From positions 7,482 to 71,481 of the forward strand of contig JAHJSA010000023.1 in the NCBI GenBank assembly GCA_018830645.1: 64,000 nt of DNA, in the 5' to 3' direction. The translations under genes and the position numbers were made by a program. The notes under the pieces were generated by a model that was given only the letters and a program-made list of their open reading frames with translations, was not told where the DNA came from and ran no database searches. Numbering within the stretch: position 1 is the first letter of the stretch; each line of letters opens with the position of its first letter. Of the stretch, positions 2,857 through 58,878 are shown piece after piece. The DNA is from Actinomycetota bacterium (GTDB taxonomy: Bacteria > Actinomycetota > Thermoleophilia > RBG-16-64-13).

Positions 2857-3577
2857 CGTACTCCTCCTCCCCGAGGTAGGCGTCGAGGACCGCCGGGTTC
2901 TTGGAGATCTCGGCCGGAGTACCCTCCGCGATCTGGGAGCCGAAGTTGAGCACCACGATGCGGTGCGAGAGGTTCATGATCACCTTCATCACGTGCTCGA
3001 CCACCAGAAAGGTCATACCTTCGCTGTTGAGCCGGCGCACGAGAGCCAGGATGTCGTCGATCTCCACGGGAGTGAGCCCGGCGGCGACCTCGTCCAGCAA
3101 CAGCAGGTCTGGTTCGGTCGCAAGCCCCTTTCCGATCTCAAGACGTTTGAGCTCCATCAGCGTGAGGTCGCGGCCGAGCACGTCGGCCTTGTGGCCTATT
3201 CCCACCACATCGAGCACCTCGCGGGCCTTCGCTTCGGCCGCTCCAGTGGAGCCGTGCCGTACAAAGGCGCCGATCATCACGTTCTCGAGCGCGGTGATGT
3301 CGGGGAACGGCTGCACCACCTGGAACGTGCGCGTAAGCCCGAGCTTGCACATCTGGTGCGACTTGCGGCCGGTGACATCCTTGCCTTTGAAAAACACCGA
3401 TCCGGAGGTGGGCCGCAGGGCCCCGGCGAGCAGGTTGAAGCAGGTGGTCTTGCCGGCGCCGTTCGGGCCGATCAGACCGACGATCTCACCGCTGTCCACG
3501 TGGAACGTGAGGTCGCCCACAGCGGTGAGGCCTCCGAACACCCGGGTGAGGTTCTTCACCTCCAGCAGCGGAGTCAC
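2849..3577 (-). CDS. livG: Branched-chain amino acid ABC transporter ATP-binding protein LivG
   Basis: Walker A GPNGAGKTT; C-terminal LivG-type extension; true start is a GTG at 3577 preceded by GGAGGTG RBS (residue 256 of the track ORF, whose N-terminal 255 aa overlap livM in another frame). Confidence 0.85.
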
Positions 3578-18384: not shown

Positions 18385-18447
18385 ACCGGGTTGGAGGAGC
18401 GCGACCGCCGCCCCCGGGGTCGGCCGCGCTCTTGCTCCGGCGGTCAG

Positions 18448-20055: not shown

Positions 20056-20295
20056 ATCACTGAGTCCTGCAGTGCGAAGCGAGATCGGAGGCTTCTAGGA
20101 CATCGGGCCAACTCTACGTGGTCACGTGTAGCTGCCGTTTAGCCTCTTGTATGAAGTTTTCGGATGGGTTGTACGCCTTGTGTACAGGAATGCGAATGGC
20201 GCGCCCGGGAAACGACACCGAGCGCGCCATTCGACGCTCGCGCTGCGACGGCCGGCCCCGGCTGGCGAGCCCGGGGCGCGAACCGCTGCTCGGCC

Positions 20296-24244: not shown

Positions 24245-24253
24245 GGCAGACCT

Positions 24254-31214: not shown

Positions 31215-32708
31215 CTATGCCGGCACGCCGGCCCCAGCGATCTCTTTGAGCGCCTCGGCCACCGCAGGCTCCAGCGGGATCGGCGCGTGCGTATCGGCCA
31301 CCTCCCAGGCACGGGCGCGGGCACGGGCCACAGGGTCATCGGTGCCCGGGTCCATCCGTGCCCGCGAAAGCAGCTGAGGCCGCCACATGAGGCGCGCGTG
31401 CCGCATCGAATGCTTGGTGGCGAGGAAGTGCCCTCGGGGACCCACCTGCGCAATCGTTTCGAGCGCCAAGGTATCGTCGTCGACTTGAATGGGGCGCGCC
31501 GTGAAGGTGAGGGCGTTCCACAACTCCACGCCCAGAAGTAGCTCCGCCGGATCGCACACCGTCGCATTCTCGAGGAGACCCGGCCCCACCATCGCGTCGG
31601 GCCTCGCGAGCAGTATCATCGTCCCGGTAAGAGCGTCTTCGAAGGCCGACTGCCAGCCCACCCGAGTCGAGCCGCAGGCCATGCCGCCCATGAGAGATGG
31701 CAGCTTGTAGAAGCGGGCCATAGCAGTGGCGGCATTGGTGACCATGGCTTCCTCCGGTGCTCCACCGGCCATGCGGCCGGTCAACGGGTCGAGGACGCTG
31801 GTCATGCAGCTGTAGAAAGCCCTGGCTCCGGGACAAACCAGCCCCAGCGTCGCCAGGGTGCCGATGATCTCCGCGTTCACGATCACCAGATTCCCGGCGG
31901 GACTCGCCGGAGCAGTTCCACAGGCGAGTGGCATCGACACGATGCCCACGGGCACGCCCGCCTCAGCGAACACGAACGCCGCCTCCAAGGCCTCACCCTC
32001 GTTGGCAAGTGGGCTGATGGAACACTGGAAGTTGGACATCACGGGGCGGCGGCGAAGCTCGTCGGCGCCGCCGGCCACGAGCCGCGCCATCTCCACGGCC
32101 GCGCGCGCCTGGTGGGGCTTGGTGACGGTCATGCACTGCACGTGCTTCCCCGTGTTGGCGAAGGTGGCCTCGAGCTCCCAGAGCGGCTGCCTCTCCACCG
32201 GCCGGTCCAGGGCGCTCACCATCTGCCACGCGAAGGCGATCTCTGGGAGGGCGTCGCAGATGCGGGTCAGAGCCGCCAGATCATCGTAGGTGGAATCCCG
32301 CCACTCCCCCGTGAACCGATCCACCATCAGCATGCCGCACCCGCTCGGGCCAAGGTAGGTGGTACAACCGTCCAGTGCCAAGTCGAAGCGCTCGTCGCGG
32401 GCAGCGAAGACGCAGTCTCGCGACAGGAACGAAAGCCCCTTCTCCACGAGCTCGGCGGACATGCGCACCCGGGTGCCTTCGACGCTCGCCCCGTGTTCAG
32501 CGAGCACCCCCAAGCCCCGCTCCCACGGGATGTCGAGCCCCACAGACCCAAGAACGTCCAAGGTGGCCTGGTGCACGCGGTGCACACCATCTTCGCCGAG
32601 CAGATCCAGCCGCGGCAGGTCGGTCGGCGGCAGGAACGCTCCTGGCTGGGAGCCGCCGGCTGCGCCTGCCGGCGCGGTCGACGGCGGCGGTCGGTAGTCG
32701 TTGCTCAC
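31215..32708 (-). CDS. MttB-superfamily methyltransferase without pyrrolysine (uninterrupted ORF; candidate quaternary-amine/methylated-amine:corrinoid methyltransferase)
   Basis: 497 aa, full-length homologue of the trimethylamine methyltransferase family, but no in-frame TAG at the position where the two neighbouring mttB genes carry it. Confidence 0.8.
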   Translation of the reverse strand: MSNDYRPPPSTAPAGAAGGSQPGAFLPPTDLPRLDLLGEDGVHRVHQATLDVLGSVGLDIPWERGLGVLAEHGASVEGTRVRMSAELVEKGLSFLSRDCVFAARDERFDLALDGCTTYLGPSGCGMLMVDRFTGEWRDSTYDDLAALTRICDALPEIAFAWQMVSALDRPVERQPLWELEATFANTGKHVQCMTVTKPHQARAAVEMARLVAGGADELRRRPVMSNFQCSISPLANEGEALEAAFVFAEAGVPVGIVSMPLACGTAPASPAGNLVIVNAEIIGTLATLGLVCPGARAFYSCMTSVLDPLTGRMAGGAPEEAMVTNAATAMARFYKLPSLMGGMACGSTRVGWQSAFEDALTGTMILLARPDAMVGPGLLENATVCDPAELLLGVELWNALTFTARPIQVDDDTLALETIAQVGPRGHFLATKHSMRHARLMWRPQLLSRARMDPGTDDPVARARARAWEVADTHAPIPLEPAVAEALKEIAGAGVPA

Positions 32709-32751
32709 GCCGTATGTCCTCCTTCGAGTGTGGGGCGATCAGGCCGTTGCA

Positions 32752-34158
32752 CTACAGCTCCGCATTGAGCTTCTTTCGGAGGGTTTCGACGGAGGCTATC
32801 TCCACCCCCAACAGCCTCCCGATGCGCGCCTTGGCCGCCAGGCCTCGGGCGGCGCCCGGCATCGCCGTCACCACGCCGATATCGAGCTCCTCACGCAGTT
32901 CTCGCATGACCACCTCGTCGGAGAGGTCGCTGACGCCGACTCCGAGCTTGCCGGCCACGAACGCTTTCGCCTCTGAGATCCGCATCTTGCGATGGAGTTG
33001 CATCCTGGCGACCAGATCTCCGGCCGCGCGGATGCCCCCCATCCCGGAGGCGAGCACGTGTGCCATGGGCATCCCTACGGGATCGCCCACGCCCACCTAT
33101 AACCCGTCCACGCGCCCGATCTCCACCATGGCCACGCTCGCTCGGGTCACGGCGTCCACCGGCGGGGTCTCGCACATGGGCACTCCCCCCACTCCCATGC
33201 CCACATTCGCGTGTATAGGGATGGAAGCGGCCTCGGAACAGGCCTTGACGAAGGTAACCGCCCGGGCGACGTTCCACGCACACGACCTGCGGGTGTTGGT
33301 GTTGACGACAGGGCCGAACACGGCGGCGCCCGCCTTCTCGACCAACTTCACCTGCTGGTGCGGATAGAGACCGGCCAGCCGCTCTCCCTTGTACGTGACC
33401 TCGCCGTGCATGCCGAGTACGAACTCGGCGGCCATACCCACCTGGATCGACAGGTGCGTGTTCGCGGAGAGCTCCTCGACCGCCAGAAGAGTGGCCAGGA
33501 ACTCGGCATCGCCCGCCGAGGCGGTGGTGTCGAAGTCCAGACCGTCTGCTCCGGCGTCTGCCATCTTCCTACCCACGTACACCATGTCGCGGGTGCAGGC
33601 CTCGGCCGCTGCCAGCTGCGCCGCTCGGGCCTCCTCGATCTTGCCCTCAGGGAGCAGATCAGAGGGGTTGCCGAACGGGCCGTCGGGCCGGGCGTAGGTG
33701 GCCAGGTTCGGCATCGCCCCGTAATACACGGGGATGATGGTGCCGAGTAGCACGCTCTCCATGCATTGCTGCTCGTTGGCGACGATGGGCTTCACGGGTT
33801 TGTACGAGTAGTCCGGGTGGCCGAGTTCGATGGTGTCGAAGCCGAAGGCGCGCTCGAAGAGACGGATGGCCTGTTCTCGCGACACCGGCACCCCGACGCC
33901 GCTGTCTCCCTGCTCGGCGTACAACGAACCCGCCACGCCGTCGTCGCTGAGCACGACCTCACGGCCGGGCTCCACTCCCACGATGCGCCCGGGATAGGCG
34001 AAGAGGTCGAATAGGTGGTCGCGCTCCTGCTCGGTGATGGTAGGGATACGCCCGCGGTCGGCCGCGTCTTCCGTGCCGGCCAGGATGTCGGCACGGACCT
34101 TGTCCGAGGACATCGCCTCAACGCGCCCATCGCCCATGCGCATGCGGTGGCTCGGCAT
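32752..34158 (-). CDS. mtbB: Dimethylamine:corrinoid methyltransferase MtbB, pyrrolysine-containing (in-frame UAG at 33097..33099)
   Basis: Two adjacent in-frame track ORFs (33097..34158 and 32752..33096) separated only by TAG; junction ...[33 protein letters not shown] matches the MtbB Pyl site; N-terminus MRMGDG..GDSGVG is also MtbB-like; ~468 aa in total. Confidence 0.9.
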
Positions 34159-35639
34159 CAGTTTCCTCCTTGGTTCCGGGCCGGACGGCCCAGGTGTTTC
34201 GCGATGACCGCCTCAGCTTCCGGGGGCAACGGCGCTACAGAGTGCTTGGCGAGGATCCTTCGGGCAACGGCGAGCGCCCGAGCGTGGGCGTCCTCACCCC
34301 CGCGCTTCTCCCAGGCGCCCCGCATGCGACGGTCGATCACCTGAGCCTCCGACTGCTCGCGACGAGCCAGTTCCCGGGTATGCCTCTCGCGCAGGAAGTT
34401 GCCATCGGACCCTACTCTCAGAATGGATTCGAGACCGATGGAGGCGACATCGCTGCGGATGCCTTCGAGCACCCGCCGGTTCATGCGTGCGATCTCGTCA
34501 TCCATCACCATCTGACCGAAGTCGAAGGTCAGGCCTAATTCGAGCATCCCCATGCCATAGATCAGGTTGGCCCCTGCCAACGCTGGTAACAGACTGGTGA
34601 GGGTCTTCTCGTGGCCCGCCTGCACGTCGGGTAGTTTGCTGTCTGCCTAACCGCCGGCCACCCAGCAGGGCAGGTAGTAGAACTCACTCATCTCGGCGAC
34701 GGCGGCGGAGATGAGGGCGAGTTCGGGAGCTCCGACGGGCGCAGTGGCGTGGCGCAGGTCGAAGGTGGTGGTGCTGCTGCCGTAGATGACCGGAGCCCCG
34801 GGGCGGGTGAGTTGAGCGAGCGTAAGCGCCGAGAGCACCTCCGCGTTGTGGGTGACCATGGTGCCGGACAGGCTGATCGGACCGGTCGCCCCGGCCATGG
34901 CCATGGAGATGACGTTCGAGGCGATCCCGTGGCGCGCGCACCCCATCATGATCTCCGGGGTGGGCGAGTAGAGGGCCAGGGGACTCGTGGGGCAGGTGTC
35001 GATGGAGAATATGGGGCGCTCGCGCAAGGCTTCAGCCCCGCCGACCACCGCTGCCCCGATCTCGGCGAGTTCATCGATCTGCTCTCCGGTCTCGACGCCC
35101 GCGTGCACGTGCTTCGTGGTATTGCGGAGCGCCGCGACGAAGCCCTCCAGGTAGGCGCTCTCGGAGGGCACGTCGGTGGGCGTCACCGCCATCTCGAAGG
35201 TATCGCACATCTCGAGGGCGTCGCAGAGCCGAGCTATGCGGGCGAGATCGTCCAGGGTGGAGTCCCGGTGCTCCCCCGTCTCGAGATCGTAGACTTTGGT
35301 GCCCTCACCGAAGTTGGTGTAGCCCACCGAACGGCCGCCCATGAGGTAGTCGCGCTCGCCATCCCGCGAGGCCAGGAGGATCGTGCCCGGAGCCGACTCC
35401 AGTGCCTCTTCAACCACGTTCCGGGGGAAGCGGACAATCCGCGTGTGGGTGTCCACGACGCACCCTGCCCCGTCGAGGACATCGAGCGCCTCGTCCACCG
35501 GCACCTTCACACCGGCCGTCTCGAGAACGACCAGGGTGGCCTCATGGATCGCTTCCCGACCCGCGGCGCCCAACACATCGAAGCTGAGCCGCGGTACGCC
35601 CGCTCGCTCCTCATCCCTCAGCTTCTCTCTCCACCCCAT
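34158..35639 (-). CDS. mttB: Trimethylamine:corrinoid methyltransferase MttB, pyrrolysine-containing (in-frame UAG at 34647..34649)
   Basis: Track ORFs 34647..35687 and 34158..34625 share a frame across a single TAG: ...[51 protein letters not shown]; ~493 aa from ATG 35639 (RBS AAGGAAGG), Pyl at ~331 as in MttB. Confidence 0.9.
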
Positions 35640-35644
35640 ATGCC

Positions 35645-36169
35645 TCAGGCCTTCCTTTCCAGAGCGGGATCTTCGGGGACTTCCCACATATAGCTGAACT
35701 TCTCGTTCCCCAGGATGGTGAACACCTCGGTTGAGAGAATGCTCCCGCCCGGCGCGAGCGGGCCGCCGAGGAACTCAAGGAGCTCCTCGCTTCCTCGGAA
35801 CACGGCTTCCACCAGGAGGTTATAACGACCGGTGCAGTACCCCACCCAGCACACCCGGTTGAGTGCGGCGAAGGCGCGGGCGACCTCCCGCAGATCGCCT
35901 GCGACAACATTCACGCCGATCATGACGTTGATGGGATAGCCGGTGGCCGCAGGGTCCAGCAAACCCACGATCTGCATCACTCCGGTTTCGTGCAACCGTT
36001 CGATGCGTTTGCGCACCGTGGGCACGGACACGCCGGTGGCCCGCGCGATCTCCGCGTTCGGCAGGCGTCCGTCGCTCTGCAGGAGGGCGAGGATCTTGCG
36101 GTCCAGTGAATCAAGGTGCTCCGGACGCGGCTCGCTCCTCCGATGCTCGTCCACCAGACCCCCAGTCAA
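35645..36169 (-). CDS. Lrp/AsnC family transcriptional regulator
   Basis: N-terminal HTH (LDRKILALLQSDGRLPNAEIARATGVSVPTVRKRIERL) and C-terminal RAM ligand-binding domain; directly upstream of mttB. Confidence 0.8.
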   Translation of the reverse strand: MTGGLVDEHRRSEPRPEHLDSLDRKILALLQSDGRLPNAEIARATGVSVPTVRKRIERLHETGVMQIVGLLDPAATGYPINVMIGVNVVAGDLREVARAFAALNRVCWVGYCTGRYNLLVEAVFRGSEELLEFLGGPLAPGGSILSTEVFTILGNEKFSYMWEVPEDPALERKA

Positions 36170-44602: not shown

Positions 44603-46063
44603 CTACTCCTCCGCCGAGACGATGATCTTCTTCATCGCCTCGTGGACCGCGGGATCGAGCGGCATCGCCTCGTGGGTCTTCAGCAGATCGGCGGCCATAG
44701 CCTCGGCACGCGTCGCCACGTCGGTCCCACCTTTCTTCGTCCATGCTCCCCGCGTACGCCTGTCGAAGAGCTTCACCTTCGACTGCTCCGAGGGCATGTA
44801 CTTCAGCGTGTGCTTCTCCTTCAGGAAGTTCTTGCCCGAACCGATCTTGTGGATCACCTCGGTGCCGATGGTGTCGTTGTCCACGGGTGAACCGCGCACC
44901 ACGCGCTTGACCATCGAGGCGATCTCGTTGTCGATCAGGAGCTGTCCGTAGGAGAACGTGACACCCAGTTCGAGCATCCCCATACCGTATATCAGGTTGG
45001 ACCCTGCCAACGCTGGTAGCAGACTGGTGATGGTTTTCTCGTGCCCGGCCTGAGCGTCGATCACTTTGCTATCCGCCTAACCACCGGCAACGTAGCTCGG
45101 CAGATTGTAGTAGTTGGACAGTTCGGCCACCGCCGCGGAGATCATGCCCAGCTCTGGCGCCCCTACGGGGGCCGTGGCGTAGGTCATGTCGAACATGGTG
45201 GTGGAGCTTCCGTACATGGCGGGAGCGCCCTTGCTGGTGAGCTGCGCCAGCGTGAGGCCGGCCAGCACCTCTGCGTTGTGGGTGACCAGCGTGCCCGATA
45301 CCGACACCGGGCTCGATGCGCCCGACATGGCCATGCTGAGCACGTTGATGGGGCATCCCCAGCGCGCGCTCTCCATGATGACCTCGCAGGTCACCGTGTG
45401 GAGCATCAGGGGGCTGGTGGGGCACACCAGGGTGGAGACCAGCGGCCTCTCCCGGAGCTCCCTGTCGCCGCCCGCGATGAGCGCGGCCATCTCGAACATC
45501 TTGCGGGCGTTGGCACCCGAAGAGACGTCGATGTGATGCACGTGCTTACTCGTGTTCAGGAACGCGGCTTCGAGCATGTGCAGGTCGTATGAGGCGTCGG
45601 GCATGTCGCGAGCGACGACGGCCGTCGAGTACACGTCGACGTTCTCCATCGCGTCGCAGGCGAGCGCCGTCCTTCCCATGTCTTCCTTTGTGGTCTCGTT
45701 CACTTCGCCCGTCTCGGGATCGGTGACCATGATCCCGCAGCCGAAGTTGGTGTAGCCCACGTGCTTGCCGCCCATCCAGTAGTCGTACCTGGGATCGCGC
45801 GCCGCGAGCAGGATGCTGCTCGGGCACGACGCCAGGGCTTCCTCGACCACGTAGGCCGGGAACTTCACGATCTTGGTGGCACGATCGACGATGCAGCCGC
45901 CCTCTTCGAGAACGTCCACTGCTTCCTCGAGATGAACCTCGACCCCGGTCAGCCGGAGGACTTCCAGCGTGGCGTCGTGGATGGCGTCGAGCTGACTGCT
46001 CGAGTACATCCTGAGACCCCAGCCTTGGTATTCCTCCGTACTGGCTCTCGGTCCTCGGATCAT
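44603..46063 (-). CDS. mttB: Trimethylamine:corrinoid methyltransferase MttB (second copy), pyrrolysine-containing (in-frame UAG at 45077..45079)
   Basis: Track ORFs 45077..46165 and 44603..45064 are in frame across one TAG: ...[54 protein letters not shown]; paralogous to the 34158..35639 copy. Confidence 0.9.
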
Positions 46064-46106
46064 GTGCGCACCTCCTTTCTCTCGCTCGTAGTGACAGGCC
46101 GTCTCA

Positions 46107-46772
46107 CTAGGAGACGGCTTCCTTGGCCTTCGCCACCGTCTCGGTGGCGCTCTCGGCGTAGACATCCGCGCCGATCTTGTCGGCCCAGTGCTGGGTGGCG
46201 GCGGCGCCGCCCACCATCGTCTTCACATTCCCCCTGATGCCCGCCTCGGTGAGGGCCGCCTCCAACTTGGCCTGATTCACCATGGTGGTGGTCATGAGGG
46301 CCGAGCTACCCACCAGATCGGCGTTGGTCTCCTGCGCCATGCGGACGAATTCGCCGATGGCCACGTCGCGGCCAAGGTCATGCACCTCGAACCCGGACAC
46401 GCCGAGAAGCGTGCCCACGATCGTCTTTCCGATGTCGTGCACGTCACCTTCGATCGTGCCGATGACCACCGTGCCGAGCTTCTCGACCGCCGATGCTTCG
46501 GGCAGGGCCTCTTCCAGTATTGCAAGCGCGGCCGTCATGCAGTCCGCGGCGATGATCATCTCGGGAAGGCTCATCTCTTCCGCCTCGAACATCTCCCCGG
46601 CCCGGCGCATGCCCACCGTGAACCCTTCCTGCAGGAGCCGGACTGGATCTAGACCGCTCTCCAACGCATCCTTGGCCAGCTGTACCGCACCGTCCTCATC
46701 GATGTCGAGGACGAGCTCCTGCGCCTTCTGGATGGCTTCCTCCATGCTAAGTGTCGCCATGTACCGGTTCAC
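46107..46772 (-). CDS. mttC: Corrinoid (cobalamin-binding) protein, MttC-like
   Basis: B12-binding domain with DxHxxG (GDVHDIGK) and SxL / GG motifs; N-terminal corrinoid cap helix; immediately upstream of mttB. Confidence 0.85.
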   Translation of the reverse strand: MNRYMATLSMEEAIQKAQELVLDIDEDGAVQLAKDALESGLDPVRLLQEGFTVGMRRAGEMFEAEEMSLPEMIIAADCMTAALAILEEALPEASAVEKLGTVVIGTIEGDVHDIGKTIVGTLLGVSGFEVHDLGRDVAIGEFVRMAQETNADLVGSSALMTTTMVNQAKLEAALTEAGIRGNVKTMVGGAAATQHWADKIGADVYAESATETVAKAKEAVS

Positions 46773-46991: not shown

Positions 46992-47005
46992 GTAAGACCA
47001 CCTCC

Positions 47006-47284
47006 TTAGACCAGGAGCCCAGTATCGCTCATGCGCTGACGGCCGAACTCGGTAAGGCTGTACTTGAGCAGTATCTTCTCCTTCCCGAAGCTCTTGCTCG
47101 GATCAATGGTCTCCTCGATGGCATCGATGAGCCCCCCCGAGTAGAGGTCCGCAAGGGTGACCCGGTTGTTGCCGTACCAGTACTCGCCCTCGAGACCGCC
47201 GTACTCGGCGTTCAGTAACTCAGCGAGTTCGTAGTCCCACTTGGCTCCCTCGGTCTGCAGGATCTGCAGCAGGCGCCCTTTCAT
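47006..47284 (-). CDS. Hypothetical small soluble protein (~92 aa)
   Basis: ORF from the internal ATG (MKGRLLQILQTEGAKWDYELAELL...); no recognisable motif; lies between the membrane protein gene and the small peptide. Confidence 0.4.
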   Translation of the reverse strand: MKGRLLQILQTEGAKWDYELAELLNAEYGGLEGEYWYGNNRVTLADLYSGGLIDAIEETIDPSKSFGKEKILLKYSLTEFGRQRMSDTGLLV

Positions 47285-47315
47285 GTGTAGCTTCGCCACG
47301 TATCCCCCTCTCAGC

Positions 47316-48395
47316 TTAGCTGCCCGCAGTGTCCGAGTTCTCCGATGAGCCCCCAAGATGCGAGACCGATCGGATGACCTCAAGAACATCGCGGCGCTCG
47401 GTGTACATGATCACTCCACCGGCGATGACGATCAGGCCGCCGATCAGGAAGTTCAGGTCAGGCATGGTCAAGGTGAAGATGCCCAGGAAGATTATGGCGA
47501 ACACCCCGTAGAAATCGGCGATCGCCTGCCCGCGACCCACACCGATGAGCGGGAACGACTTATACCACGATACGTAGCAGAAGCCGAATGTCAGCCCGGC
47601 CAACAGCAACCACACGAGGTTCGTGAAGTGAAGCGCATCGACGAGCATCGTGATCGCATCGCCGCCGGTGAGGATCGCCGTGACCGGCAAGATGAGAACT
47701 ACCCAATAGAGAACCTCGGCCGTGAAGCGGATCGTGAGCCCCACGTCTGGGTCTACTACATCGAGCGCCCGACCGGCGAACGCGCCTTCGATACCCCAGC
47801 CCGTCGCAGCCATGATCCCGCCCACGTAGCCGAGCCACGAGCCGGTGCCCGTACCGGTCATCTCAGCGAGGATCCCCGGTGCGTAGACGACCAGACCTCC
47901 GCCAACGATCACCAGGATGCCGAGTGCCGCCCGGGTGGTTATCTTCTCTGCATACCAGACCCGGGCCAAGCCGGCGCCCACAATCGGATAGAGCAGGGCG
48001 GCAACAGCCGCGAAGACACCGCCAACGTAGCCGATGGCAAGAAAGCTACCGAAGATCGCCATGGGACCGCCGAAGACCGCTCCTGCGAAGAACCACTTCG
48101 AGACCTTGCGCATCTGCCGAATAGTCCTACCGTATTCCCGCATCTTGCCCAACACCGCAACCCAGACGTACATCGCGAGCAGCACAGCGATGGCGTTGAG
48201 CGCGGTGATAACCGCTGCCGCCATCAGGAAGTCCCTGGTTGTATCGGCGATGGCGTTGAACGGCGCTTCGTACCAGATCGCGGTGCCGGGCACGTACCAG
48301 GCACCCCACAGCACAGCGCACCACAGCGCCCACACGAACCCCCACCGCACCGACCGCTCGGTGTGATCCCTTCGTGCCTTCGTCAGATCCGACAT
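47316..48395 (-). CDS. Integral membrane protein (~10 TM), putative permease, possibly a methylamine permease analogue
   Basis: 359 aa, highly hydrophobic with repeated Gly-rich TM segments; inserted between pylC and the mttC-mttB pair; family not assignable from sequence alone. Confidence 0.55.
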   Translation of the reverse strand: MSDLTKARRDHTERSVRWGFVWALWCAVLWGAWYVPGTAIWYEAPFNAIADTTRDFLMAAAVITALNAIAVLLAMYVWVAVLGKMREYGRTIRQMRKVSKWFFAGAVFGGPMAIFGSFLAIGYVGGVFAAVAALLYPIVGAGLARVWYAEKITTRAALGILVIVGGGLVVYAPGILAEMTGTGTGSWLGYVGGIMAATGWGIEGAFAGRALDVVDPDVGLTIRFTAEVLYWVVLILPVTAILTGGDAITMLVDALHFTNLVWLLLAGLTFGFCYVSWYKSFPLIGVGRGQAIADFYGVFAIIFLGIFTLTMPDLNFLIGGLIVIAGGVIMYTERRDVLEVIRSVSHLGGSSENSDTAGS

Positions 48396-48412
48396 CTATC
48401 GACCCCCTTTCG

Positions 48413-48434
48413 TGCGATGCCTAGCAGCATCGCA
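48413..48434 (-). terminator. Perfect 8-bp GC-rich hairpin (TGCGATGC-n6-GCATCGCA) ~18 nt upstream of the membrane-protein start and downstream of pylC
   Basis: Inverted repeat read directly; no U-tract, so a terminator or RNA-stability/attenuator role cannot be distinguished. Confidence 0.3.
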
Positions 48435-48716
48435 GCCTCTAGAAACCCACCGACTCCAGATCCTCAGTGCCGATCCCCCCTCTCTTCGAGCCTCGGTGTA
48501 CTTGTATGGACAGGTACGCGAGAATGTCCGCGCCCCGGACGACCGCCTCATGATACCTGGACGCACCAACAATACGCAACAGACTCGCACCCATCCTGAA
48601 AGCCGCAGTGACCCCTGTCTCGTGCCTAGACAGGCTTGAGACACCACGGCCGCGACCCCCTGAGCAATCCGCTCGTGTGGGTGGCGCACCGAGCGCGGCA
48701 ACAGCCCGGGGGTGGG

Positions 48717-49904
48717 TCAACGAGCACCTCCCCCTATCGACCCAGTCCGTACGCTCACCGGGTCAGGCGTCGCCGACAACCCGGAGTCGCGCGCGAGCCG
48801 GCGAACGGCCTCCTCCGCGCGGGCACGTGCGTCTACCGCGTCGACGCCTACGCAGATCATGGTGGCCGACCAGGTCTCTCGCCCCTCGGCACGGTCCGTG
48901 AGCACCTCGTCCGCGCCGAAGGCGTCTTCCAGGAGCCGCAGCGGCCCCGCCGTGCTCATCACGTGTTCCCCGAGAACCTCCAGGCTGCCCATGGAGGCGT
49001 GCACGTGTTGGTAGCAGACTCCACGACCGCCCGGGGGCAGTGAGCCGGGGAGACCGGCGCCACGTGCGATATCCGCGACCAACGCCACCACATTGAGTCC
49101 CGTGGAGTGCAGTACCGCGGTGGGCGTCTGGCTGGGTAGCCGCGCGTCGATCTCGATCAGCCGCGGAACGTCGCCGTCCAACATGACCTCGACGTCCATG
49201 AGACCCACGAGCCCCATGCGTTCGGCAAGACGCACCCCGGCAGCGGACATGGCCTCGAGAGACCCTCCGGCCGCGGTCACCGGAGCGACCACGCGCTTGC
49301 AGTCGTACACGTGGTCGAACTCGAGCAACGTGGGCACCAGAGGCAGCGCCCCATCCGGCGTCCCGATCACCTCCAACGACAGCGAAGGCCCGTCGACGTA
49401 CTGCTGCACGACGACTTCATGACCCGCGGTCTCGAGCCTCTCTCGAGCCGCTTCGAGGTCGCTCTCGGTCCAGACGACGCTCACCCCCTCGCTGCCGCTC
49501 GACCCGCTCGGCTTGACCACCGCGGGGAAGCCGCACTCGGGCCACGGTAGGGGCCGCGGAACATCCAGTTCGGCGAAGAGACGGTCGGAACGAAGCTTCG
49601 AGCAGGAGAGCTCGTAGGAAGGAAGGTGGAAGGCCAGAGGTACACCCCAGGACGGCACGACTTCGCTCAGCCACCGCAGGGTCTTCAGGTCTTCGCAGGC
49701 GGGCAGGATCACGTCGCACGCTCCGAGCACCACCCGCGCTCGTTTCACGTCGGCCGTGACGTCGAACACGTGGCTCTCTGTTGCCAATCCCGAGGCGGGC
49801 GTGGCGGGCGCCCTATCGACGAGGACAACCTCGAATCCAGCCTTGATGCCCAAATAGACCGCCTCGGTCCCTTGTAGACGTCCTCCCACGACGCCCAGGC
49901 GCAT
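48717..49904 (-). CDS. pylC: Pyrrolysine biosynthesis ATP-grasp ligase PylC (3-methylornithine--L-lysine ligase)
   Basis: Start VVGGRLQGTEAVYLGIKAGFEVVLVDR... and the IEIDARLPSQTPT motif match PylC; ATG overlaps the pylB TGA. Confidence 0.9.
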   Translation of the reverse strand: MRLGVVGGRLQGTEAVYLGIKAGFEVVLVDRAPATPASGLATESHVFDVTADVKRARVVLGACDVILPACEDLKTLRWLSEVVPSWGVPLAFHLPSYELSCSKLRSDRLFAELDVPRPLPWPECGFPAVVKPSGSSGSEGVSVVWTESDLEAARERLETAGHEVVVQQYVDGPSLSLEVIGTPDGALPLVPTLLEFDHVYDCKRVVAPVTAAGGSLEAMSAAGVRLAERMGLVGLMDVEVMLDGDVPRLIEIDARLPSQTPTAVLHSTGLNVVALVADIARGAGLPGSLPPGGRGVCYQHVHASMGSLEVLGEHVMSTAGPLRLLEDAFGADEVLTDRAEGRETWSATMICVGVDAVDARARAEEAVRRLARDSGLSATPDPVSVRTGSIGGGAR

Positions 49905-51001
49905 CACCACTGGGCCTGCGCCCTCAACCCCGGAGCCTGCGTCCCGGCGAGCCAGCCTTCGTACTCCGGCAAGGAGGCCACCTTCAACCCGAGGGGAGCG
50001 AGATGCCGCTCCACTCCGGCCACGGTACGGAAGCCCTCATCGATGTCGAGCGTTGACTGTGAGACTCCGGCCAGCCCGCTTGCGGGAGGGATGATGGATG
50101 TGACGACGTTGGCGCCCGCACGCAGGCGGGCCTCCAGACCCCGAAGGCCGTCGATGTCGAGAGAGGCTGGGATCAGGCGATCGGGCATGGTGAGCCGCAT
50201 GGTGGCTAAGGTGACCATCTCGGCCAGCAGGGTGGGCGTGTCGAGGCCGCCCATAGGAGTGCCCTTCTGGGGGACGAAGCCCATCACCCGCACCTGCTGC
50301 ACACCCTGCGCCCTCATGGTGACGAGGGAGCGCGCCCGGTCGGCGGCCGTCTCGCCCACACCCAGAAGGATGCCGTCTTCAGCGTGTAGTCCAGCGCCCA
50401 GGGCCCGGCTCCTCGCGCCGACACGCGCCGCGAAATCCTGCCCCGGCCGAAGCTTGCGGAACAACTGCGGTGAGTGGGTCTCCTGGTAGCAGGCATACCA
50501 GTCGGCCCCCGCCTCGGCGAGCTGCCGCAGCACGGCATCCGGCACCACGCCCGGAGACACCATCACCGGCACCCCTGCCGCTCCTCGGACGTCCGCCACG
50601 AGTTCCACCAGATGGTCGAACCGGCCGGCGTCGTGGATCTCCGGGTCCTCCCCCAGGGTCAGATCCACGAGGTGCACGCCCGAGCCGGCCAAGCCGCAGG
50701 CTATCTCGACCACCTCAGCCGCGGTCTTGCGGTACCGGGGACTCGCGTCGTTGCCCTTGCGGTAGAAGCAGAACGTACAGCGATTGCGGCAATACGTCGA
50801 GAAGTAGACGAAACCGTATAGAAAGATCTTGCGCCCGAAGTAGCGCTCCCTCAGTCTCTGCGCGGTGTCGAAGATGAGAGCGGCCTCATCCGGCTCCTGC
50901 ACTTCGAGCAGCGTCTCGATCTCGGGCACCCGGAGGCGTTCCCCCGCGAGCGCGCGCTCGACGATCGCTTCCACTTCCCGGCGTCGTGGCCGTCCGGTCA
51001 C
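49904..51001 (-). CDS. pylB: Pyrrolysine biosynthesis radical SAM enzyme PylB (3-methylornithine synthase)
   Basis: FVYFSTYCRNRCTFCFY radical SAM cluster motif; RLIPASLDIDGL...AGANVVTSIIPP matches PylB; GTG start at 51001 (residue 179 of the track ORF) preceded by a G-rich RBS. Confidence 0.9.
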   Translation of the reverse strand: MTGRPRRREVEAIVERALAGERLRVPEIETLLEVQEPDEAALIFDTAQRLRERYFGRKIFLYGFVYFSTYCRNRCTFCFYRKGNDASPRYRKTAAEVVEIACGLAGSGVHLVDLTLGEDPEIHDAGRFDHLVELVADVRGAAGVPVMVSPGVVPDAVLRQLAEAGADWYACYQETHSPQLFRKLRPGQDFAARVGARSRALGAGLHAEDGILLGVGETAADRARSLVTMRAQGVQQVRVMGFVPQKGTPMGGLDTPTLLAEMVTLATMRLTMPDRLIPASLDIDGLRGLEARLRAGANVVTSIIPPASGLAGVSQSTLDIDEGFRTVAGVERHLAPLGLKVASLPEYEGWLAGTQAPGLRAQAQW

Positions 51002-51012
51002 CTGCGAACCCC

Positions 51013-51900
51013 CTATTCCTCCGCGACCGGATGCGATCCCGGCCGGGTGCCTTGTACGTTGAGGCGCGCCCCGTCGAGGTACACGAGACTCCTCCCTACC
51101 GGGTGGATACGAGACCCACCCGTCTGCATCATGGCTAGACGCTCGAGGCCGAACCCCCACCCGGCCCACGGACCGTTGACGCCCCACTGCTCGTCGAGTG
51201 GGTGCGGTCCGACGACGCCTGAGGCCACCTCGATGCCGCGCACCTCCACATCGAACGTCGCGCCATATACGCCGGAATCGGTCTCGACGATCTTGTATTG
51301 CAGGCCCAGGGGCCTCATGGCGACATCGGCCAGCATCCGCAGGCGATCGGCGGGGTCGCCGCTCGGCTCGAACTCCACAAGGTTGAGCATGGTGAACTCC
51401 GAGAGGTGGTTCGAGCCCTTCGACTCCTTGCGGAAACAGGGTCCCACTTCGAAGATGCTCACGGGGGGCGGCCATAGCCGTTGGAGGTGACTGAGCAGGT
51501 AGTAGAGGTTCGGTGCCAGCATCGGGCGCAGGCATCGGTCGGTGTCGACCCAGTACACCTGGCGCCAGAGCGGGTGTACTTCACCGATCCCCATCTTCGC
51601 CAGGGCGCCCTTGCTCATCATGAGCGGCGTGGCCACCTCGACGAAACCATCCGCCACCAGCGCCGCGACCAAGACCGACTCCACCGTGCGCAGCACCGGG
51701 CGTCGCCTCTCGGTGCGCAGAGAGTCGAGCCGATCGACGTTCGCCTGGCTGAGTTCCCGATGGTTCCCCTCGTAGCGGGCGTCGCGCTCCTCAGCCGAGT
51801 CGAACGTGTCGGCCAGCGCGGCATCGTCAAGCCCGATCTCGGCTAAGCGCTGCCTCTGCTGCGGCGAGAATCCGAGTGCGATGTCTCCCTGGCCTATCAC
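51013..51900 (-). CDS. pylS: Pyrrolysyl-tRNA synthetase, C-terminal catalytic subunit (PylSc)
   Basis: Class II aaRS motifs conserved with PylS: CLRPMLAPNLY, FEVGPCFRKES, EFTMLNL, GPHPLDEQWG, GFGLERL; GTG start overlaps the pylSn TGA (GTGA). Confidence 0.9.
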   Translation of the reverse strand: MIGQGDIALGFSPQQRQRLAEIGLDDAALADTFDSAEERDARYEGNHRELSQANVDRLDSLRTERRRPVLRTVESVLVAALVADGFVEVATPLMMSKGALAKMGIGEVHPLWRQVYWVDTDRCLRPMLAPNLYYLLSHLQRLWPPPVSIFEVGPCFRKESKGSNHLSEFTMLNLVEFEPSGDPADRLRMLADVAMRPLGLQYKIVETDSGVYGATFDVEVRGIEVASGVVGPHPLDEQWGVNGPWAGWGFGLERLAMMQTGGSRIHPVGRSLVYLDGARLNVQGTRPGSHPVAEE

Positions 51901-52262
51901 ACGAACGAGGTGCTCTCGAACTTCTCGAGCTTCCAGGATGGTATACGGCACCGCGGACACGGCTCGTCGTAGATCTTGTTGCGCAGATGACGGGCGACCC
52001 GACTGTTCCGGGAGTTCCGCATGCGGATGTCATGCCCGCAGTGCGTCTGCAACTCCACGAACCCGCCCCTGAGCTTCACCGAACGGACGCCATGCAACAG
52101 GCCGGTCTTCGACGGCCACAGCTTCACCTTCTCGATCACCCCGTAGGGGGCGGCATGCCGCCGCACCGTGCGCTTCTTCGCGCCGGGGATAGGAGCCAAG
52201 ACCCAGTCGGGCAGCTTCCCGCCTGTCCCAACGTCTCCGTTCGTGGAGCCGACCACGTCCAC
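51897..52262 (-). CDS. pylSn: Pyrrolysyl-tRNA synthetase N-terminal tRNA-binding domain protein (PylSn)
   Basis: 121 aa; LQTHCGHDIRMRNSRNSRVARHLRNKIYDEPCPRCRI closely parallels the Zn-binding region of the Methanosarcina PylS N-terminal domain; GTG start 45 nt downstream of pylT. Confidence 0.85.
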   Translation of the reverse strand: MDVVGSTNGDVGTGGKLPDWVLAPIPGAKKRTVRRHAAPYGVIEKVKLWPSKTGLLHGVRSVKLRGGFVELQTHCGHDIRMRNSRNSRVARHLRNKIYDEPCPRCRIPSWKLEKFESTSFV

Positions 52263-52307: not shown

Positions 52308-52379
52308 TGGAGGAGAGTCCGGGAGTCCAACCCGGCTACGAAGATTTAGAGTCTCCGCGGTCATGCCGACCAACCCTCC
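52308..52379 (-). tRNA. pylT: tRNA-Pyl (CUA anticodon) gene pylT
   Basis: Minus-strand 72-nt sequence GGAGGGTTGGTCGGCATGACCGCGGAGACTCTAAATCTTCGTAGCCGGGTTGGACTCCCGGACTCTCCTCCA folds with a 7-bp acceptor stem, single U8, a 4-bp D stem with 5-nt D loop, a 6-bp anticodon stem, loop CU-CUA-AA, a 3-nt variable loop and a 5-bp T stem. These are the hallmark atypical features of tRNA-Pyl. Confidence 0.85.
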
Positions 52380-52457
52380 TTGTTGCCGGCCGCCGGGCGG
52401 CCGGCTCGGGGTGCACCGCCCGTCTGTGGGGCGGTGCACCACTACTCGTAGGCGGTC

Positions 52458-53486: not shown

Positions 53487-54887
53487 CTATCCCATCTTCG
53501 CTTTCAGTCTGTCCACACTGTTGATACTGATACCGAGCAATTCTGCGATACGGATCTTAGCCTCTATCCCCTTGGCGCATCCGGGCACTGAGGTGATCAC
53601 ACCTATGTCGAGGTCTTCGCGCATCTCCCGCATCACCGTGACCTCGGAGAGGTCGGCGACGCTGATCTTCAGCTTGTCGGCCACGTAGGCTTTGGCTTCC
53701 GGTAGGCGCATCCTGCGCGCGAGCTGCATCCGAGCGACCAGGTCTCCGGCCGTACGGATGCCGCCCATACCAGCGGCCACCCCGTGGGCGATGGGCATCC
53801 CGTAGGGATCGCCCACACCCACCTATAATCCGTCGACGCGGGCGATCTCGACCATCGCGACCGAGGCCCGCGAGACACTGTCGATAGGCGGGGTCTCGAA
53901 CACCGGGGAGCCACCCACCCCCATGCCCATGTTCACGTGCACCGGGATGTTGGCCACCGCGGTGACCGCCTTGACGAAGGTGACGGCGCGGGCAAGGTTC
54001 CAGGCCATCGACTTGCTGGTGTTGGTGTTCACGACAGGTCCGAAGATGTCGCCTCCGGCCTTCTCGACGAGACCAACTTGGTGGTGCGGGTAGAGCCCGG
54101 CGAGACGCGTGCCGTCGTACTCGAGCTCGCCGTGGATACCGAGTACGAACTCCCCGGCCATGCCAACCTGGATCGCAAGATTCGGGTGTTTGGCCTTCAG
54201 CTGCTCGACTGCCTGAAGCGAGGCTTTGAAGTCCGCGTCGCCCGCCGCGCCCGTCGTATCGAAGTTCACGCCGTCGGCGCCCACCTCGGCCAGCTTGCCG
54301 CAGATGTAGACGATGTCGCGGGTCGCGTGCTCGACCGCCAGTTCCTGGGCCTCACGCGCCTCCTTGATCTTGCCCATCGGCAGGAGGTCGGAGGGGTTGC
54401 CGAACGGGCCGTCGGGCGCGTAGTAGGTGCCGAGGTTCGGCATGGCTCCGTAGAAGATGGGCACGATGGTGCTGAGCAGGATGTTCTCGAGCGCCTGCTG
54501 CTCCTGGGCGATGATCGGCTTGACCGGCTTCCAGGAGTAGTCCACATGCCCGAGTTCCATGGTATCGGCCGCGAAGGCCCGCTCGTGCACCTGCACGCCC
54601 TGCAACCGGCTCAGCGGGATACCGACCCCGCTGTTGCCTTGGTCGCCGTCGAGGCGCAACGTGCCGATGTCGTGCGTGAGTACGACCTCGTTCCCCGAGT
54701 CGACGCCCACTACGCGCGCATTGCTCTTGAAGAGGTCGAGCAGGAAGTCGATCTCGTCGTCTTTGAGGGGTGGGATGCGGCCGCGATCGGCTGCGTCTGC
54801 GGAGCCGGCGATCAGATCGGCCTTCAGCTCGTCAGCCGTCATATCGATCACGTGCCCGTCCCCCATCCGGGTCGGGTACTTCGTCAT
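53487..54887 (-). CDS. mtbB: Dimethylamine:corrinoid methyltransferase MtbB (second copy), pyrrolysine-containing (in-frame UAG at 53823..53825)
   Basis: Track ORFs 53823..54887 and 53487..53822 abut in frame across TAG: ...[33 protein letters not shown]; N-terminus [24 protein letters not shown] is MtbB-like. Confidence 0.9.
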
Positions 54888-55759: not shown

Positions 55760-57370
55760 TTAGAGCCAGAAGATGGCGTAGGCGGTGAATACCACCGCCA
55801 CACCTGCAGCCAGAGTCACATAGGGCAACACTCCGGCCTTGCGGGGACCGAGTTCAGTCTCGCCCGCGGGCAACAGGTCCGCCCACATGTGGTCGGGGAA
55901 CTTGCCCTTGTCGGTGATGTAGTGCCTCACGGCGAACACTGGGATGACGAGAGCGGCAGATACGAAGCCCGTGGCCAGTGTCCCGGGACCCCACACGTTG
56001 GCCCCCGCGCCCAGAAGGAACGCGTTCACGAACGCCAGTACTACACCTGCGCCCAAGAGGAAGTTGGGGGCGCGCCACGGCCGAGGTACGTGCTTGTTGT
56101 CGATGCGGTGGATCCACCCGGCGTTCAGGTTGAGGAAGTTGAAGATCAAGTAGTTCACGTTCGACACGGCAAGCACGAACAAGTAGTCCGACATCAGCAG
56201 GAGGATCAGGTTGAACGTGAGGTCGGTCCACATGGCGCGGGTGGGCGCCCCGTGAGGGTTCACGTGATCCAGGTACTTGGGCAGCCATCCGTCGACGCCA
56301 CCCTGGTAGAGGGTGCGCGAAGAACCGGCCATCGAGGTCATCACGGCCAGCAGGAGGGTGAACACGAGCATGACCACCAGGACGTTGGTGACGACAGCGC
56401 CGCCGCCGACCATACCGGCCAGGGCTTCGCCGACGCCCGCTCCGCTGGCGATACCCGGTTCGAGCATGCCCTCTGTTCCCAAGACGCCCTGGAAGGCCAC
56501 CGGCACCACGACGTACACGGCGATGCACAGGAGGCCGGAGTAGAGGATGGCGCGAGGGGTATCGCGGCCCGGGTTCTTGAACTCACTTGTGTAGCAGATG
56601 GCGGTCTCGAACGCGTAGGCCGACCAGGCCGCGATGAACAGACCGCCCATGAAGAGCGTCCACCCACCCAGATCCCACGAACCCGCGATGACGTTGCCGG
56701 CATCATCCAAGGCGAGCGGGGTGAACGGCGAGAAGTTGCTGAGTGAGACATCGCCGGTGAGCAACGGCACGACGCTCACGACGAGCAGCGGCATGAGCGC
56801 ACCCACGGCAAGTACTGTCTGGATCCGGGCGGTGCGCAGGATGCCGTGGTGCTGCATGGCGAACACCGCGAGGAGCATGGCTGCACCGATGAAGAAGGTG
56901 GCGTTCACACGGATCGACAGGTCATCCTTGAGGAAGTCGAGCGGTATCAGCGTCACCTGCCACGTGTTGATCGCGGCGTCAGGCGCAAAGAAGATCGAAA
57001 GAAGGTAGCCCGCGCCGAGACCGCAGCCGATGGCCAGCACCGGGGTCCAGGCGAGCCAGTTGCACCAGAGCGAGACCGGCGCCAAGAGCTTGCTGTAGCG
57101 CACCCAGGCCGTGGCGCCATACACAGAAGCCCCTCCCGACTTGCTGGGGAAGAGGCCGGCGATCTCGGCGTAGGTGAACGCTTGGATGAAGCCGAACAGA
57201 ACGGAGATGGTCCACACGAGCCAGGCCGGCGCCCCCACGGTCGCCGAGATGCCCCCCATGGAGAAGAGCACCAGCGCGGGCACGCCGATCGCGACCCAGA
57301 AGGCCCCCTTCCAGTCGATATCGCGCTTCAGAACACCGGCCTCGTGCGACACGTACGTTTCCGATGACAT
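55760..57370 (-). CDS. APC-superfamily permease (amino acid/polyamine/organocation), candidate methylamine transporter
   Basis: 536 aa, ~12 TM, APC-type Gly-rich helices; located between the mtbC and mtmB genes. Confidence 0.75.
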   Translation of the reverse strand: MSSETYVSHEAGVLKRDIDWKGAFWVAIGVPALVLFSMGGISATVGAPAWLVWTISVLFGFIQAFTYAEIAGLFPSKSGGASVYGATAWVRYSKLLAPVSLWCNWLAWTPVLAIGCGLGAGYLLSIFFAPDAAINTWQVTLIPLDFLKDDLSIRVNATFFIGAAMLLAVFAMQHHGILRTARIQTVLAVGALMPLLVVSVVPLLTGDVSLSNFSPFTPLALDDAGNVIAGSWDLGGWTLFMGGLFIAAWSAYAFETAICYTSEFKNPGRDTPRAILYSGLLCIAVYVVVPVAFQGVLGTEGMLEPGIASGAGVGEALAGMVGGGAVVTNVLVVMLVFTLLLAVMTSMAGSSRTLYQGGVDGWLPKYLDHVNPHGAPTRAMWTDLTFNLILLLMSDYLFVLAVSNVNYLIFNFLNLNAGWIHRIDNKHVPRPWRAPNFLLGAGVVLAFVNAFLLGAGANVWGPGTLATGFVSAALVIPVFAVRHYITDKGKFPDHMWADLLPAGETELGPRKAGVLPYVTLAAGVAVVFTAYAIFWL

Positions 57371-57453: not shown

Positions 57454-58878
57454 CTACCAGTGCTTGTAGTTGACGCCGAGATCCTGCATCGCTTTCACGG
57501 CTTCGTCGTACACGGCCAAATACTCGGCGGTGGGAACGACCTTGATCGGGTCGTAGCACTCGTCGAACGGCTGACCCGCCGGCGCCGTCTTGTAGTCTTT
57601 CTCGTAGCTGCCCACCAGAGCGTCGAGGATACGGTTGGCCTCTTCGAGCGGCATCCCGGCCACCGCGTGGGCGACCTCGCCCATGAAGCGGGCCTCGAGC
57701 CCCGTGGTCTTGTTCGTGGCCACGCCTTTGGCCGAGGCAACTCCGGAGAGTATCTCGCGACCGCTGACGGTGTCGGTGATGGACTGAGCCGCAGTCTCGA
57801 GCAGGCACATCTTCGTGCCGGGCCCCGCGACTGTGTAGTACTGGTTGCCCAACATCAGGTTCGTGTGCTCCTCGATGGCCCGTGCGCAGTGCCCGGCTAC
57901 CGCCAGCGGCTCCCTGGCCGTGGTGATGCCCCACCGCACGTGGATGGGCCCGTCGAGATGCCACGTCGCCTGCGTCATCACGAACGCGTTCAACGTGGTG
58001 GCCACGTCGACGATGGTGGTCTCTTCGAGTCCACCCGCGTACCCTCCGAAGATGGGCATCTGCTCGCACATGATGATGTTCCCGGCTAGTACGTAATGAG
58101 CGGTGAAGGTCAACGCACCTACGTCGATCTTCAGCTCATTGAGCTGGGACACTTCATGGCTGTCAGACTGCCGCATCCCCCCGGGGAAGTCGGCTGCGAT
58201 GACTCCACCGGGAGACAGGGACGTCTCATTGCCCTATAACCCCATCCCGGGCCTGCCGGCCCTTGCCTGAGCCAGGCGGACCTGGTAGGCCTCTTGCCTC
58301 ACGGCAGCAATCTCCCACGGGCTGTTCGGTGTGGGGTCGTAGCCGTTGATCGTCTGCATCACCCCGTCCACGATGGTGTCTACGATGCTTTCCTTCGCGT
58401 AGGATTCGTGGATCGGCAGGAAGAGCGGCTCGGAGCATGGAGCCCCGGTAGGCCCTCCTTGGATCACCGGCGGCCTGGTGTCCTTGTGACTGCGAGGGCT
58501 CAGGAGCCGCGAATCACGCCCCTCCCCCAGCACGCAGGACTTGGGCGCCGCTGCAATACTGGCCCACACCTCTTCTTCCGTGTACTTGATCACGCGCCCG
58601 GTATCCATGCAGTAGATACCGCACTCCACCAGCATCTCCATGCCGGCTTTGAAGAGGTTGGCTACCAGTGCGGGGTCCGTGGGGACCATGACCTTCTTGT
58701 CCATCTGGATGCCGTGCTTCTCTTTCAAACGCGAGGCCGTCTTGGGGATGATCTCGTAGTCCCACGCGTTCTCATCCACACGCTGGCCGGTCTTCGCACG
58801 GTTGAAGGCTTCGAAGACGGTGACCTTCTGCGCTAGCGCCACGTTGGCTTCCCCCCTTTCTCTCGATCGGATGTGCAT
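57454..58878 (-). CDS. mtmB: Monomethylamine:corrinoid methyltransferase MtmB, pyrrolysine-containing (in-frame UAG at 58234..58236)
   Basis: Track ORFs 58234..58878 and 57454..58176 are in frame across TAG: ...ARAGRPGMGL-TAG-GNETSLSPGGVIAADFPGGMRQSDSHEVSQLNELKID, colinear with the MtmB Pyl-202 region (AGRPGMGV-O-GPETSLS...TDSHEVSQLNELKID); ~474 aa. Confidence 0.9.

Follow-up and report, generated by a model that had tools for sequence, protein, structure and literature searches.

A U73-type tRNA-Pyl gene with a split pyrrolysyl-tRNA synthetase and UAG-containing methyltransferase genes in an uncultured actinobacterium

Described tRNA-Pyl systems and the actinobacterial locus

The tRNA-Pyl of D. 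hafniense has G73 as a major identity element, and a G73U change costs the pyrrolysyl-tRNA synthetase (PylRS) of this species 30-fold; changes of G8 cost about 5–13-fold and the A11G/U24C exchange 27-fold, and the anticodon is not read by PylRS (PMC1851642). The gene described here, pylT, lies at 52308..52379 on the minus strand of the window, i.e., the whole stretch of 64,000 nucleotides of actinobacterial DNA that was analyzed, and encodes a tRNA-Pyl with the anticodon CUA that is 72 nt long including an encoded CCA and has U as the discriminator (U73). It resembles the D. hafniense tRNA-Pyl in cloverleaf dimensions, the 72-nt gene, encoded CCA, G1:C72, and G10:C25, but has U73, U8, and G11:C24, whereas D. 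hafniense has G73, G8, and A11:U24. G1:C72 of the canonical acceptor identity set (G1:C72 with G73) is hence present and G73 is replaced by U, which argues against the canonical G73 type and not against membership of the tRNA-Pyl family. The pylT of Paradesulfitobacterium, used as a proxy for D. hafniense, is identical to the window pylT at 57 of 72 positions. The motif-2 loop of the catalytic synthetase subunit is ESKGSNHLS in the window versus ESQGAQHLN in D. hafniense, and the gene order of the window is pylT-pylSn-pylSc-pylB-pylC, whereas most sampled G73 loci have pylSn behind pylC and pylD, several kb downstream of pylSc. The order in D. hafniense itself is taken here to be pylT-pylSc-pylB-pylC-pylD-pylSn.

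The tRNA-Pyl of Methanosarcina (class N) also has the CUA anticodon, the 6-bp anticodon stem, the single nucleotide between the acceptor and D stems, the 5-nt D loop, and the 3-nt variable loop of the window tRNA, likewise without T-psi-C, but it carries G73 and is served by a synthetase fused into one protein. At about 45 of 72 positions, the M. barkeri sequence is identical to the window pylT. Another natural non-G discriminator together with an altered motif-2 loop is found in Ca. Methanohalarchaeum thermophilum, whose tRNA-Pyl2/PylRS2 is a precedent for a discriminator defining orthogonality (PMC9071458). That system is archaeal, lacks PylSn, and has A73 with a motif-2 loop one residue shorter, whereas the loop of the window enzyme is unchanged in length with different residues, and one pair instead of two is present per locus.

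U73 tRNA-Pyl genes were named 'pylTU' by Guo et al. (2022) in three bacteria, namely, Halarsenatibacter silvermanii, a Phycisphaeraceae bacterium, and a Guaymas Basin sediment genome; two independent origins were proposed, and biochemical data on U73 pairs were noted to be lacking (PMC9630628). These bacteria share with the window the bacterial tRNA-Pyl scaffold, U73, and the split pylSn/pylSc. They belong to other phyla than the window, which is from Actinomycetota; a Halanaerobiaceae metagenome-assembled genome (MAG; locus L073) has U73 and a PylSc of the same clade as the window, and the Halanaerobiaceae tRNA shares 55 of 72 positions with the window tRNA. In comparison with the three species and two origins of the pylTU report, an entire PylSc clade of the present sample has U73 as the rule, with G73 nested in it in Dehalococcoidales. 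The window system has a split synthetase of the bacterial type, which the Chin-lab nomenclature calls 'class S', and is of the U73 'pylTU' lineage. Its U73 and encoded CCA are real and not new, and its pylT belongs, as an unexceptional case, to the rarer U73 subtype of a known family.

Architecture and comparative evidence for the tRNA gene

The minus strand of 52308-52379 reads GGAGGGUUGGUCGGCAUGACCGCGGAGACUCUAAAUCUUCGUAGCCGGGUUGGACUCCCGGACUCUCCUCCA. Parsed from 52379 to 52308, it starts with a 7-bp acceptor stem (GGAGGGU with ACUCUCC, including one G-U), followed by U8 as the sole nucleotide before a 4-bp D stem (GGUC with GACC) that closes a 5-nt D loop (GGCAU). After a single G comes a 6-bp anticodon stem (CGGAGA with UCUUCG, including one G-U) with the 7-nt anticodon loop CU-CUA-AA, then the 3-nt variable loop UAG, a 5-bp T stem (CCGGG with CCCGG), and the T loop UUGGACU, which is without UUC; the 3' end is formed by the discriminator U and the encoded CCA. 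An earlier note, made from the letters alone, had proposed a tRNA-Pyl gene here with this cloverleaf, and both the gene and the dimensions of its loops and stems are borne out by the results below. Its statement that GG and T-psi-C signatures are lacking holds in part. The D loop has a literal GG at loop positions 1-2, of which the first is invariant in the alignment and the second is conserved in most bacterial pylT, while the canonical G18G19/T54-psi55-C56 elbow signature is absent, position 56 being G and the D loop being only 5 nt long. Judged by positional equivalence, the D-loop GG does not appear to stand at the equivalent of 18/19, and the partner for a G18G19/C56-type pairing is probably missing.

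ARAGORN called a tRNA-Pyl (cta) at exactly 52308-52379 on the minus strand, the sole tRNA that it called in the 64-kb window. The generic Rfam tRNA model gave no match to pylT at gathering thresholds or at E ≤ 10 around the locus, where the only Rfam matches at E ≤ 10 were noise matches to miRNA and snoRNA models. The expectation that standard finders miss the gene is thus true of the Rfam model and untrue of ARAGORN. The minimum free energy (MFE) fold of the 72-mer is the cloverleaf as proposed, with UCCA at the 3' end; its folding z-score is a weak -1.7, with 11 of 200 shuffles folding as well, so that folding energy alone would not establish pylT.

Relatives were gathered independently of the tRNA by a PylSc search with one genome per GTDB species. 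ARAGORN was run on the 80 PylSc loci obtained and yielded 65 pylT genes, among which 37 of 72 nt, 35 of them distinct, were aligned without gaps. All 22 cloverleaf pairs are standard in all 35 distinct sequences (770/770 pair cells), and in 12 of the 22, among them three in the acceptor stem and five of the six in the anticodon stem, both partners have changed in compensation. As a control, the 3' partners were slid by 1–3 columns, upon which only 30%–61% of the cells pair. This comparative test is decisive for the pylT cloverleaf. The covariance-model search that had been suggested as a check was carried out with a pylT model of 31 sequences from which every Actinomycetota sequence was left out; its match to the window gene covers all 72 positions and scores 91.1 bits (E 3e-20). 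A better candidate elsewhere or mismatched stems, named by the earlier note as what would speak against the gene, were not found: the runner-up in the window scored 18.5 bits, which leaves one pylT, and no pair is mismatched.

In the alignment with five actinobacterial relatives, pylT is a conserved island that extends from G1 to the A of CCA between diverged flanks, and 64–72 of its 72 positions are identical in the six Actinomycetota genomes. The nearest genome is the MAG 'Actinomycetes bacterium LH_M24', with a PylSc that is 88% identical and an identical pylT; this identity of the tRNA despite the diverged PylSc and flanks indicates purifying selection. The next relatives are Thermoleophilia and other Actinomycetota MAGs, with 58%–68% identical PylSc and 64–70 of 72 identical pylT positions. 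The great majority of the sampled bacterial pylT genes likewise encode their CCA. Two identical pylT copies were seen in one locus of the sample (L043, an uncultured bacterium), at 522-593 and 3030-3101, i.e., 2.5 kb apart and upstream of pylSc.

The pyl cluster and the U73 clade of PylSc

Four pyl genes lie directly downstream of pylT on the same strand, and all are above the NCBIfam cut-offs. The first is pylSn (51897..52262, minus strand), which encodes the tRNA-binding small subunit of PylRS with 121 aa in the longest ORF (TIGR03912, 101.5 bits) and matches the structure of the N-terminal tRNA-binding domain of M. mazei PylRS (5ud5, E 8e-11). It is followed by pylSc (51013..51900, minus strand), encoding the catalytic subunit of 295 aa (TIGR02367, 283.6 bits), whose GTG start overlaps the pylSn stop (GTGA). 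The two are separate ORFs in different frames, as in the bacterial split PylRS of class S. Exactly the same 295-aa PylSc was also called by a gene caller on the source contig; among solved structures it is closest to D. hafniense PylSc (3dsq and 2zni, the latter in complex with tRNA), matched over the full length with E 1e-75, and its motif-2 loop is RKESKGSNHLSEF. Further downstream are pylB (49904..51001, minus strand; methylornithine synthase, a radical SAM enzyme, gene call of 365 aa; TIGR03910, 438 bits) and pylC (48717..49904, minus strand; 3-methylornithine--lysine ligase, gene call of 395 aa; TIGR03909, 312 bits). The gap between pylT and pylSn was first given as 45 nt, which is right for the longest pylSn ORF, starting with GTG at 52262 directly after an in-frame TAG; the closest relative has a TTG start at the same codon. 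The gene caller placed the start at a GTG two codons later, which makes the gap 51 nt.

Upstream of pylT, two GC-rich hairpins (52385..52440, minus strand) fill the 78 nt that separate it from the stop of an MtaA/MtbA-like gene. Hairpin 1 has a 12-bp stem at 52440-52410, and hairpin 2 has a 9-bp stem at 52405-52385 that ends 5 nt before tRNA position 1. LH_M24 (L003) retains both stems, with different loops and G-U changes. Neither hairpin is followed by a U-tract, no U-tract terminator was found in the scan around pylT, and no sigma-70-like promoter was recognized in the scan around and upstream of the gene. The hairpins may be U-less terminators or processing signals. Because they are kept in LH_M24 and no promoter-like site was recognized, it may be speculated that pylT is processed from a longer transcript rather than transcribed from a promoter of its own. 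Other Actinomycetota likewise carry a GC hairpin just upstream of pylT.

U73 was found in 14 of the 65 sampled pylT genes, from at least four phyla; the holders are six Actinomycetota, Thermincola and other Bacillota, one Thermodesulfovibrionales MAG, and one Halanaerobiaceae MAG. All 14 genomes fall in one PylSc clade of the neighbor-joining tree (loci L003-L015, L021, L027, and L073), and since U73 recurs in 14 independent genomes that form one PylSc clade, it is not an error. pylSn is directly upstream of pylSc in 14 of 14 U73 loci, and pylT is directly upstream of pylSn in 13 of them, the exception being L021 with pylT ~2 kb downstream of pylSc. The clade also contains two nested Dehalococcoidales that have G73, with E at the S167 position of PylSc. 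Ca. Hydrothermarchaeum (G73) stands next to Halanaerobiaceae in the tree, a placement that agrees with the reported affinity of Hydrothermarchaeum and H. silvermanii (PMC9630628). Throughout the U73 clade position 8 is U, and G11:C24 is shared by the Actinomycetota, the Dehalococcoidales, and a single Bacillota MAG.

Among the PylSc columns with the sharpest separation between U73 and G73 systems are K161 and S167 of the motif-2 loop, which correspond to D. hafniense Q164 and N170, so that the loop is ESKGxxHLSEF in U73-type enzymes versus ESQGxxHLNEF in the G73 type. Position 137, which corresponds to D. hafniense R140, is S or G in U73 enzymes versus K or R in most G73 enzymes. In D. hafniense PylSc, R140 and R144 are taken to contact the acceptor end of the tRNA. 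Exceptions to the association are L021, a U73 locus with E at 167, and L004 with T. Because the separating motif-2 columns belong to a loop that is proximal to N73 (PMC9071458), a co-adaptation of enzyme and tRNA at U73 and the motif-2 loop is suggested, which is a lead and not a result, as shared ancestry confounds the association and exceptions exist. A bolder reading, possible and on balance doubtful, is that U73 is part of a distinct recognition set and not an isolated peculiarity; U73 with U8 and G11:C24, the K/S motif-2 loop, and the loss of the basic residue at the R140 position would then be the identity elements ancestral to a deep clade of bacterial PylRS with the archaeal-like order pylT-pylSn-pylSc retained. 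If this were true, there would be a natural PylRS/tRNA-Pyl pair mutually orthogonal to G73 pairs, spread far beyond the three reported species.

Client methyltransferases, TAG usage, and competing explanations

The window contains five genes with an in-frame UAG (two mtbB, two mttB, and one mtmB), in all of which the UAG sits between same-frame coding-like ORFs and the Rfam PYLIS match begins on the UAG. The dimethylamine methyltransferase gene mtbB (53487..54887, minus strand) has its UAG at 53825-53823 (PYLIS_2, 92 bits, starting at the UAG) and consists of two same-frame ORFs, each matching PF09505. The monomethylamine methyltransferase gene mtmB (57454..58842, minus strand) has its UAG at 58236-58234 (PYLIS_1, 72.7 bits), and PF05369 MtmB is matched by both halves. 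The trimethylamine methyltransferase gene mttB (44603..46165, minus strand) likewise consists of same-frame ORFs around the UAG at 45079-45077 (PYLIS_3, 77.8 bits). A second mtbB (UAG 33099-33097; PYLIS_2, 91.4 bits) and a second mttB (UAG 34649-34647; PYLIS_3, 85.4 bits) lie within 32752..35774 on the minus strand, measured from stop to stop, both as coding-like same-frame ORF pairs. The methyltransferase genes adjoin genes for corrinoid proteins, an MtaA/MtbA-like methyltransferase, and a permease.

Several neighboring genes were also observed. The permease (55760-57370, minus strand), located between mtbC and mtmB, matches the NCBIfam trimethylamine N-oxide (TMAO) permease at 873 bits (cut-off 690), which hints at TMAO or methylamine uptake as a part of the island. 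Just outside the window lies a further mttB with an internal stop (L084 14784-16247), with fragments of 330 and 123 aa that both match PF06253, so that the source contig has at least six UAG-containing methyltransferase genes. An MttB-superfamily gene of 507 aa without an in-frame UAG (31215-32738, minus strand) matches TIGR02369 at 349 bits, below the 525-bit cut-off; a second such gene is at L084 13121-14608, and both are beside Pyl-containing mttB copies. These two genes probably encode methyltransferases of the non-Pyl kind that act on a different quaternary amine. Three other in-frame ORF pairs with a TAG between them were considered as new Pyl proteins and rejected, since the two halves of each are unrelated neighboring genes, namely, 3-2072 (aminotransferase and 3-hydroxyacyl-CoA dehydrogenase), 15634-20094 (Glu-synthase-like and PolA genes), and 22718-25624 (GATase and glutamate synthase genes).

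The pylD gene was searched for by tblastn with three PylD queries, which had been recognized as PylD from their location behind pylC and from 64 consistent matches, and whose homologues carry PF21455 PylD_N. In the window, no match was better than E 0.1, and pylD was not found in contig positions 1-80033, which include both sides of the window (L084 and L086); the window itself spans positions 7482-71481 of this contig, the 218-kb ENA metagenome contig ERZ27247117:k141_60652. A search with PylD proteins of Thermoleophilia gave no match on the source contig, and one ENA match was rejected as belonging to another sample. pylC is followed by a 320-nt gap and then by an EamA-like membrane protein gene (window 47000-48720). 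pylD is also absent from the loci of the relatives LH_M24 (L003, 9137-12885) and MFD01721 (L006), and it follows pylC in 64 sampled loci, including three of Actinomycetota. Most probably, pylD lies elsewhere in the genome, unlinked to the pyl cluster.

TAG is also a common ordinary stop. The stops of 46 ordinary coding-like ORFs in the window are TAG in 20 (about 43%), TGA in 21, and TAA in five, and the genes that end in TAG include polA, an S1 protein gene (rpsA-like), glnA, carB, and pylSc. No excess of backup stops was found after these TAGs, as the next non-TAG stop is at a median of 56 codons versus 52 after TGA. Because TAG is common as an ordinary stop without backup, amber suppression must be weak, limited, regulated, or context-dependent. 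Regulated suppression has reportedly been described by Prat and colleagues in 2012 for other Pyl bacteria.

From these sequences, the 72-nt element is with high confidence a functional pylT of an uncultured actinobacterium, whose product would decode UAG as pyrrolysine, with transcription and charging as the presumed steps. The transcript would be matured to a compact tRNA-Pyl with CCA already encoded; PylSn would bind it, and PylSc would charge it with pyrrolysine made by PylB, PylC, and an unlinked PylD, after which EF-Tu would deliver the charged tRNA to the UAG codons of the mtmB, mtbB, and mttB mRNAs. Because the G73 identity element is absent, efficient charging would depend on an adapted PylSc, and U73 would be recognized by the PylSc of this clade.

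Three other explanations were weighed against this reading. In one, the tRNA would be a decaying or non-functional pylT, the relic of a horizontally acquired pyl cassette without pylD, and the UAG of the methyltransferase genes would terminate translation. The lack of pylD beside pylC, in the window, in 80 kb of the contig, and in the L003 and L006 loci speaks for a relic, as does the frequency of TAG among ordinary stops, but pylD may lie elsewhere in the genome; moreover, no pair of the tRNA is mismatched, the tRNA is 100% identical where PylSc is only 88% identical and the flanks have diverged, the four pyl ORFs are intact and above curated cut-offs, and five methyltransferase genes (six with the one just outside the window) are coding-like in frame on both sides of the UAG. 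A relic is thus very unlikely. The evidence bearing on the register concerns the ends of the same tRNA. The acceptor stem might have 8 bp (A-1:U73), or the end might be three bases off, which would make 'U73 + CCA' an artefact of the drawing; in favor of this, a pair between A52380 and the U at 52311 could form, CUCUCCUCCA at the 3' end is repetitive, and the acceptor pairing is shifted in the centroid fold. However, the 7-bp stem is fixed by covariation of its pairs (A3:U70 exchanged with G3:C70 in 18 vs. 17 sequences, U7:A66 with C:G, and G6:C with A:U), the base 5' of G1 varies among relatives (A, G, T, C), divergence begins right after CCA, and the Dehalococcoidales pylT has the same acceptor stem with G73 and then CCA. 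A shifted register is extremely improbable on these data, and the discriminator U with a genome-encoded CCA, as given in the earlier note, follows from the acceptor-stem covariation and the sharp conservation boundaries.

The element might also serve as a general amber suppressor that is charged by a synthetase other than PylRS or receives a different amino acid, with U73 being read by, e.g., a Cys-type or Gly-type system. The G73 element is not kept, and PylRS ignores the anticodon (PMC1851642), both of which would allow such a role. Against it, the tRNA has the specific tRNA-Pyl scaffold throughout its body and retains G1:C72 and G10:C25, and U73 is inherited with pylSn-pylSc in 14 genomes. 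Canonical synthetases are not known to accept the tRNA-Pyl scaffold, and a general suppressor has next to no probability here.

With pylT as a Pyl-decoding tRNA gene, this actinobacterial contig carries most of a Pyl-decoding module, and UAG within mtmB, mtbB, and mttB should be annotated as pyrrolysine and not as a stop or the break of a pseudogene. A high-GC actinobacterial member is added to the U73 tRNA-Pyl group, which is of use to genetic-code expansion. The common TAG stops and the unlinked pylD bear on the tolerance of amber suppression in bacteria. The comparison of loci suggests that U73 is a clade-wide trait tied to synteny and to the motif-2 loop, and the U73 clade is an obvious test case for the orthogonality of U73 versus G73 PylRS/tRNA pairs.
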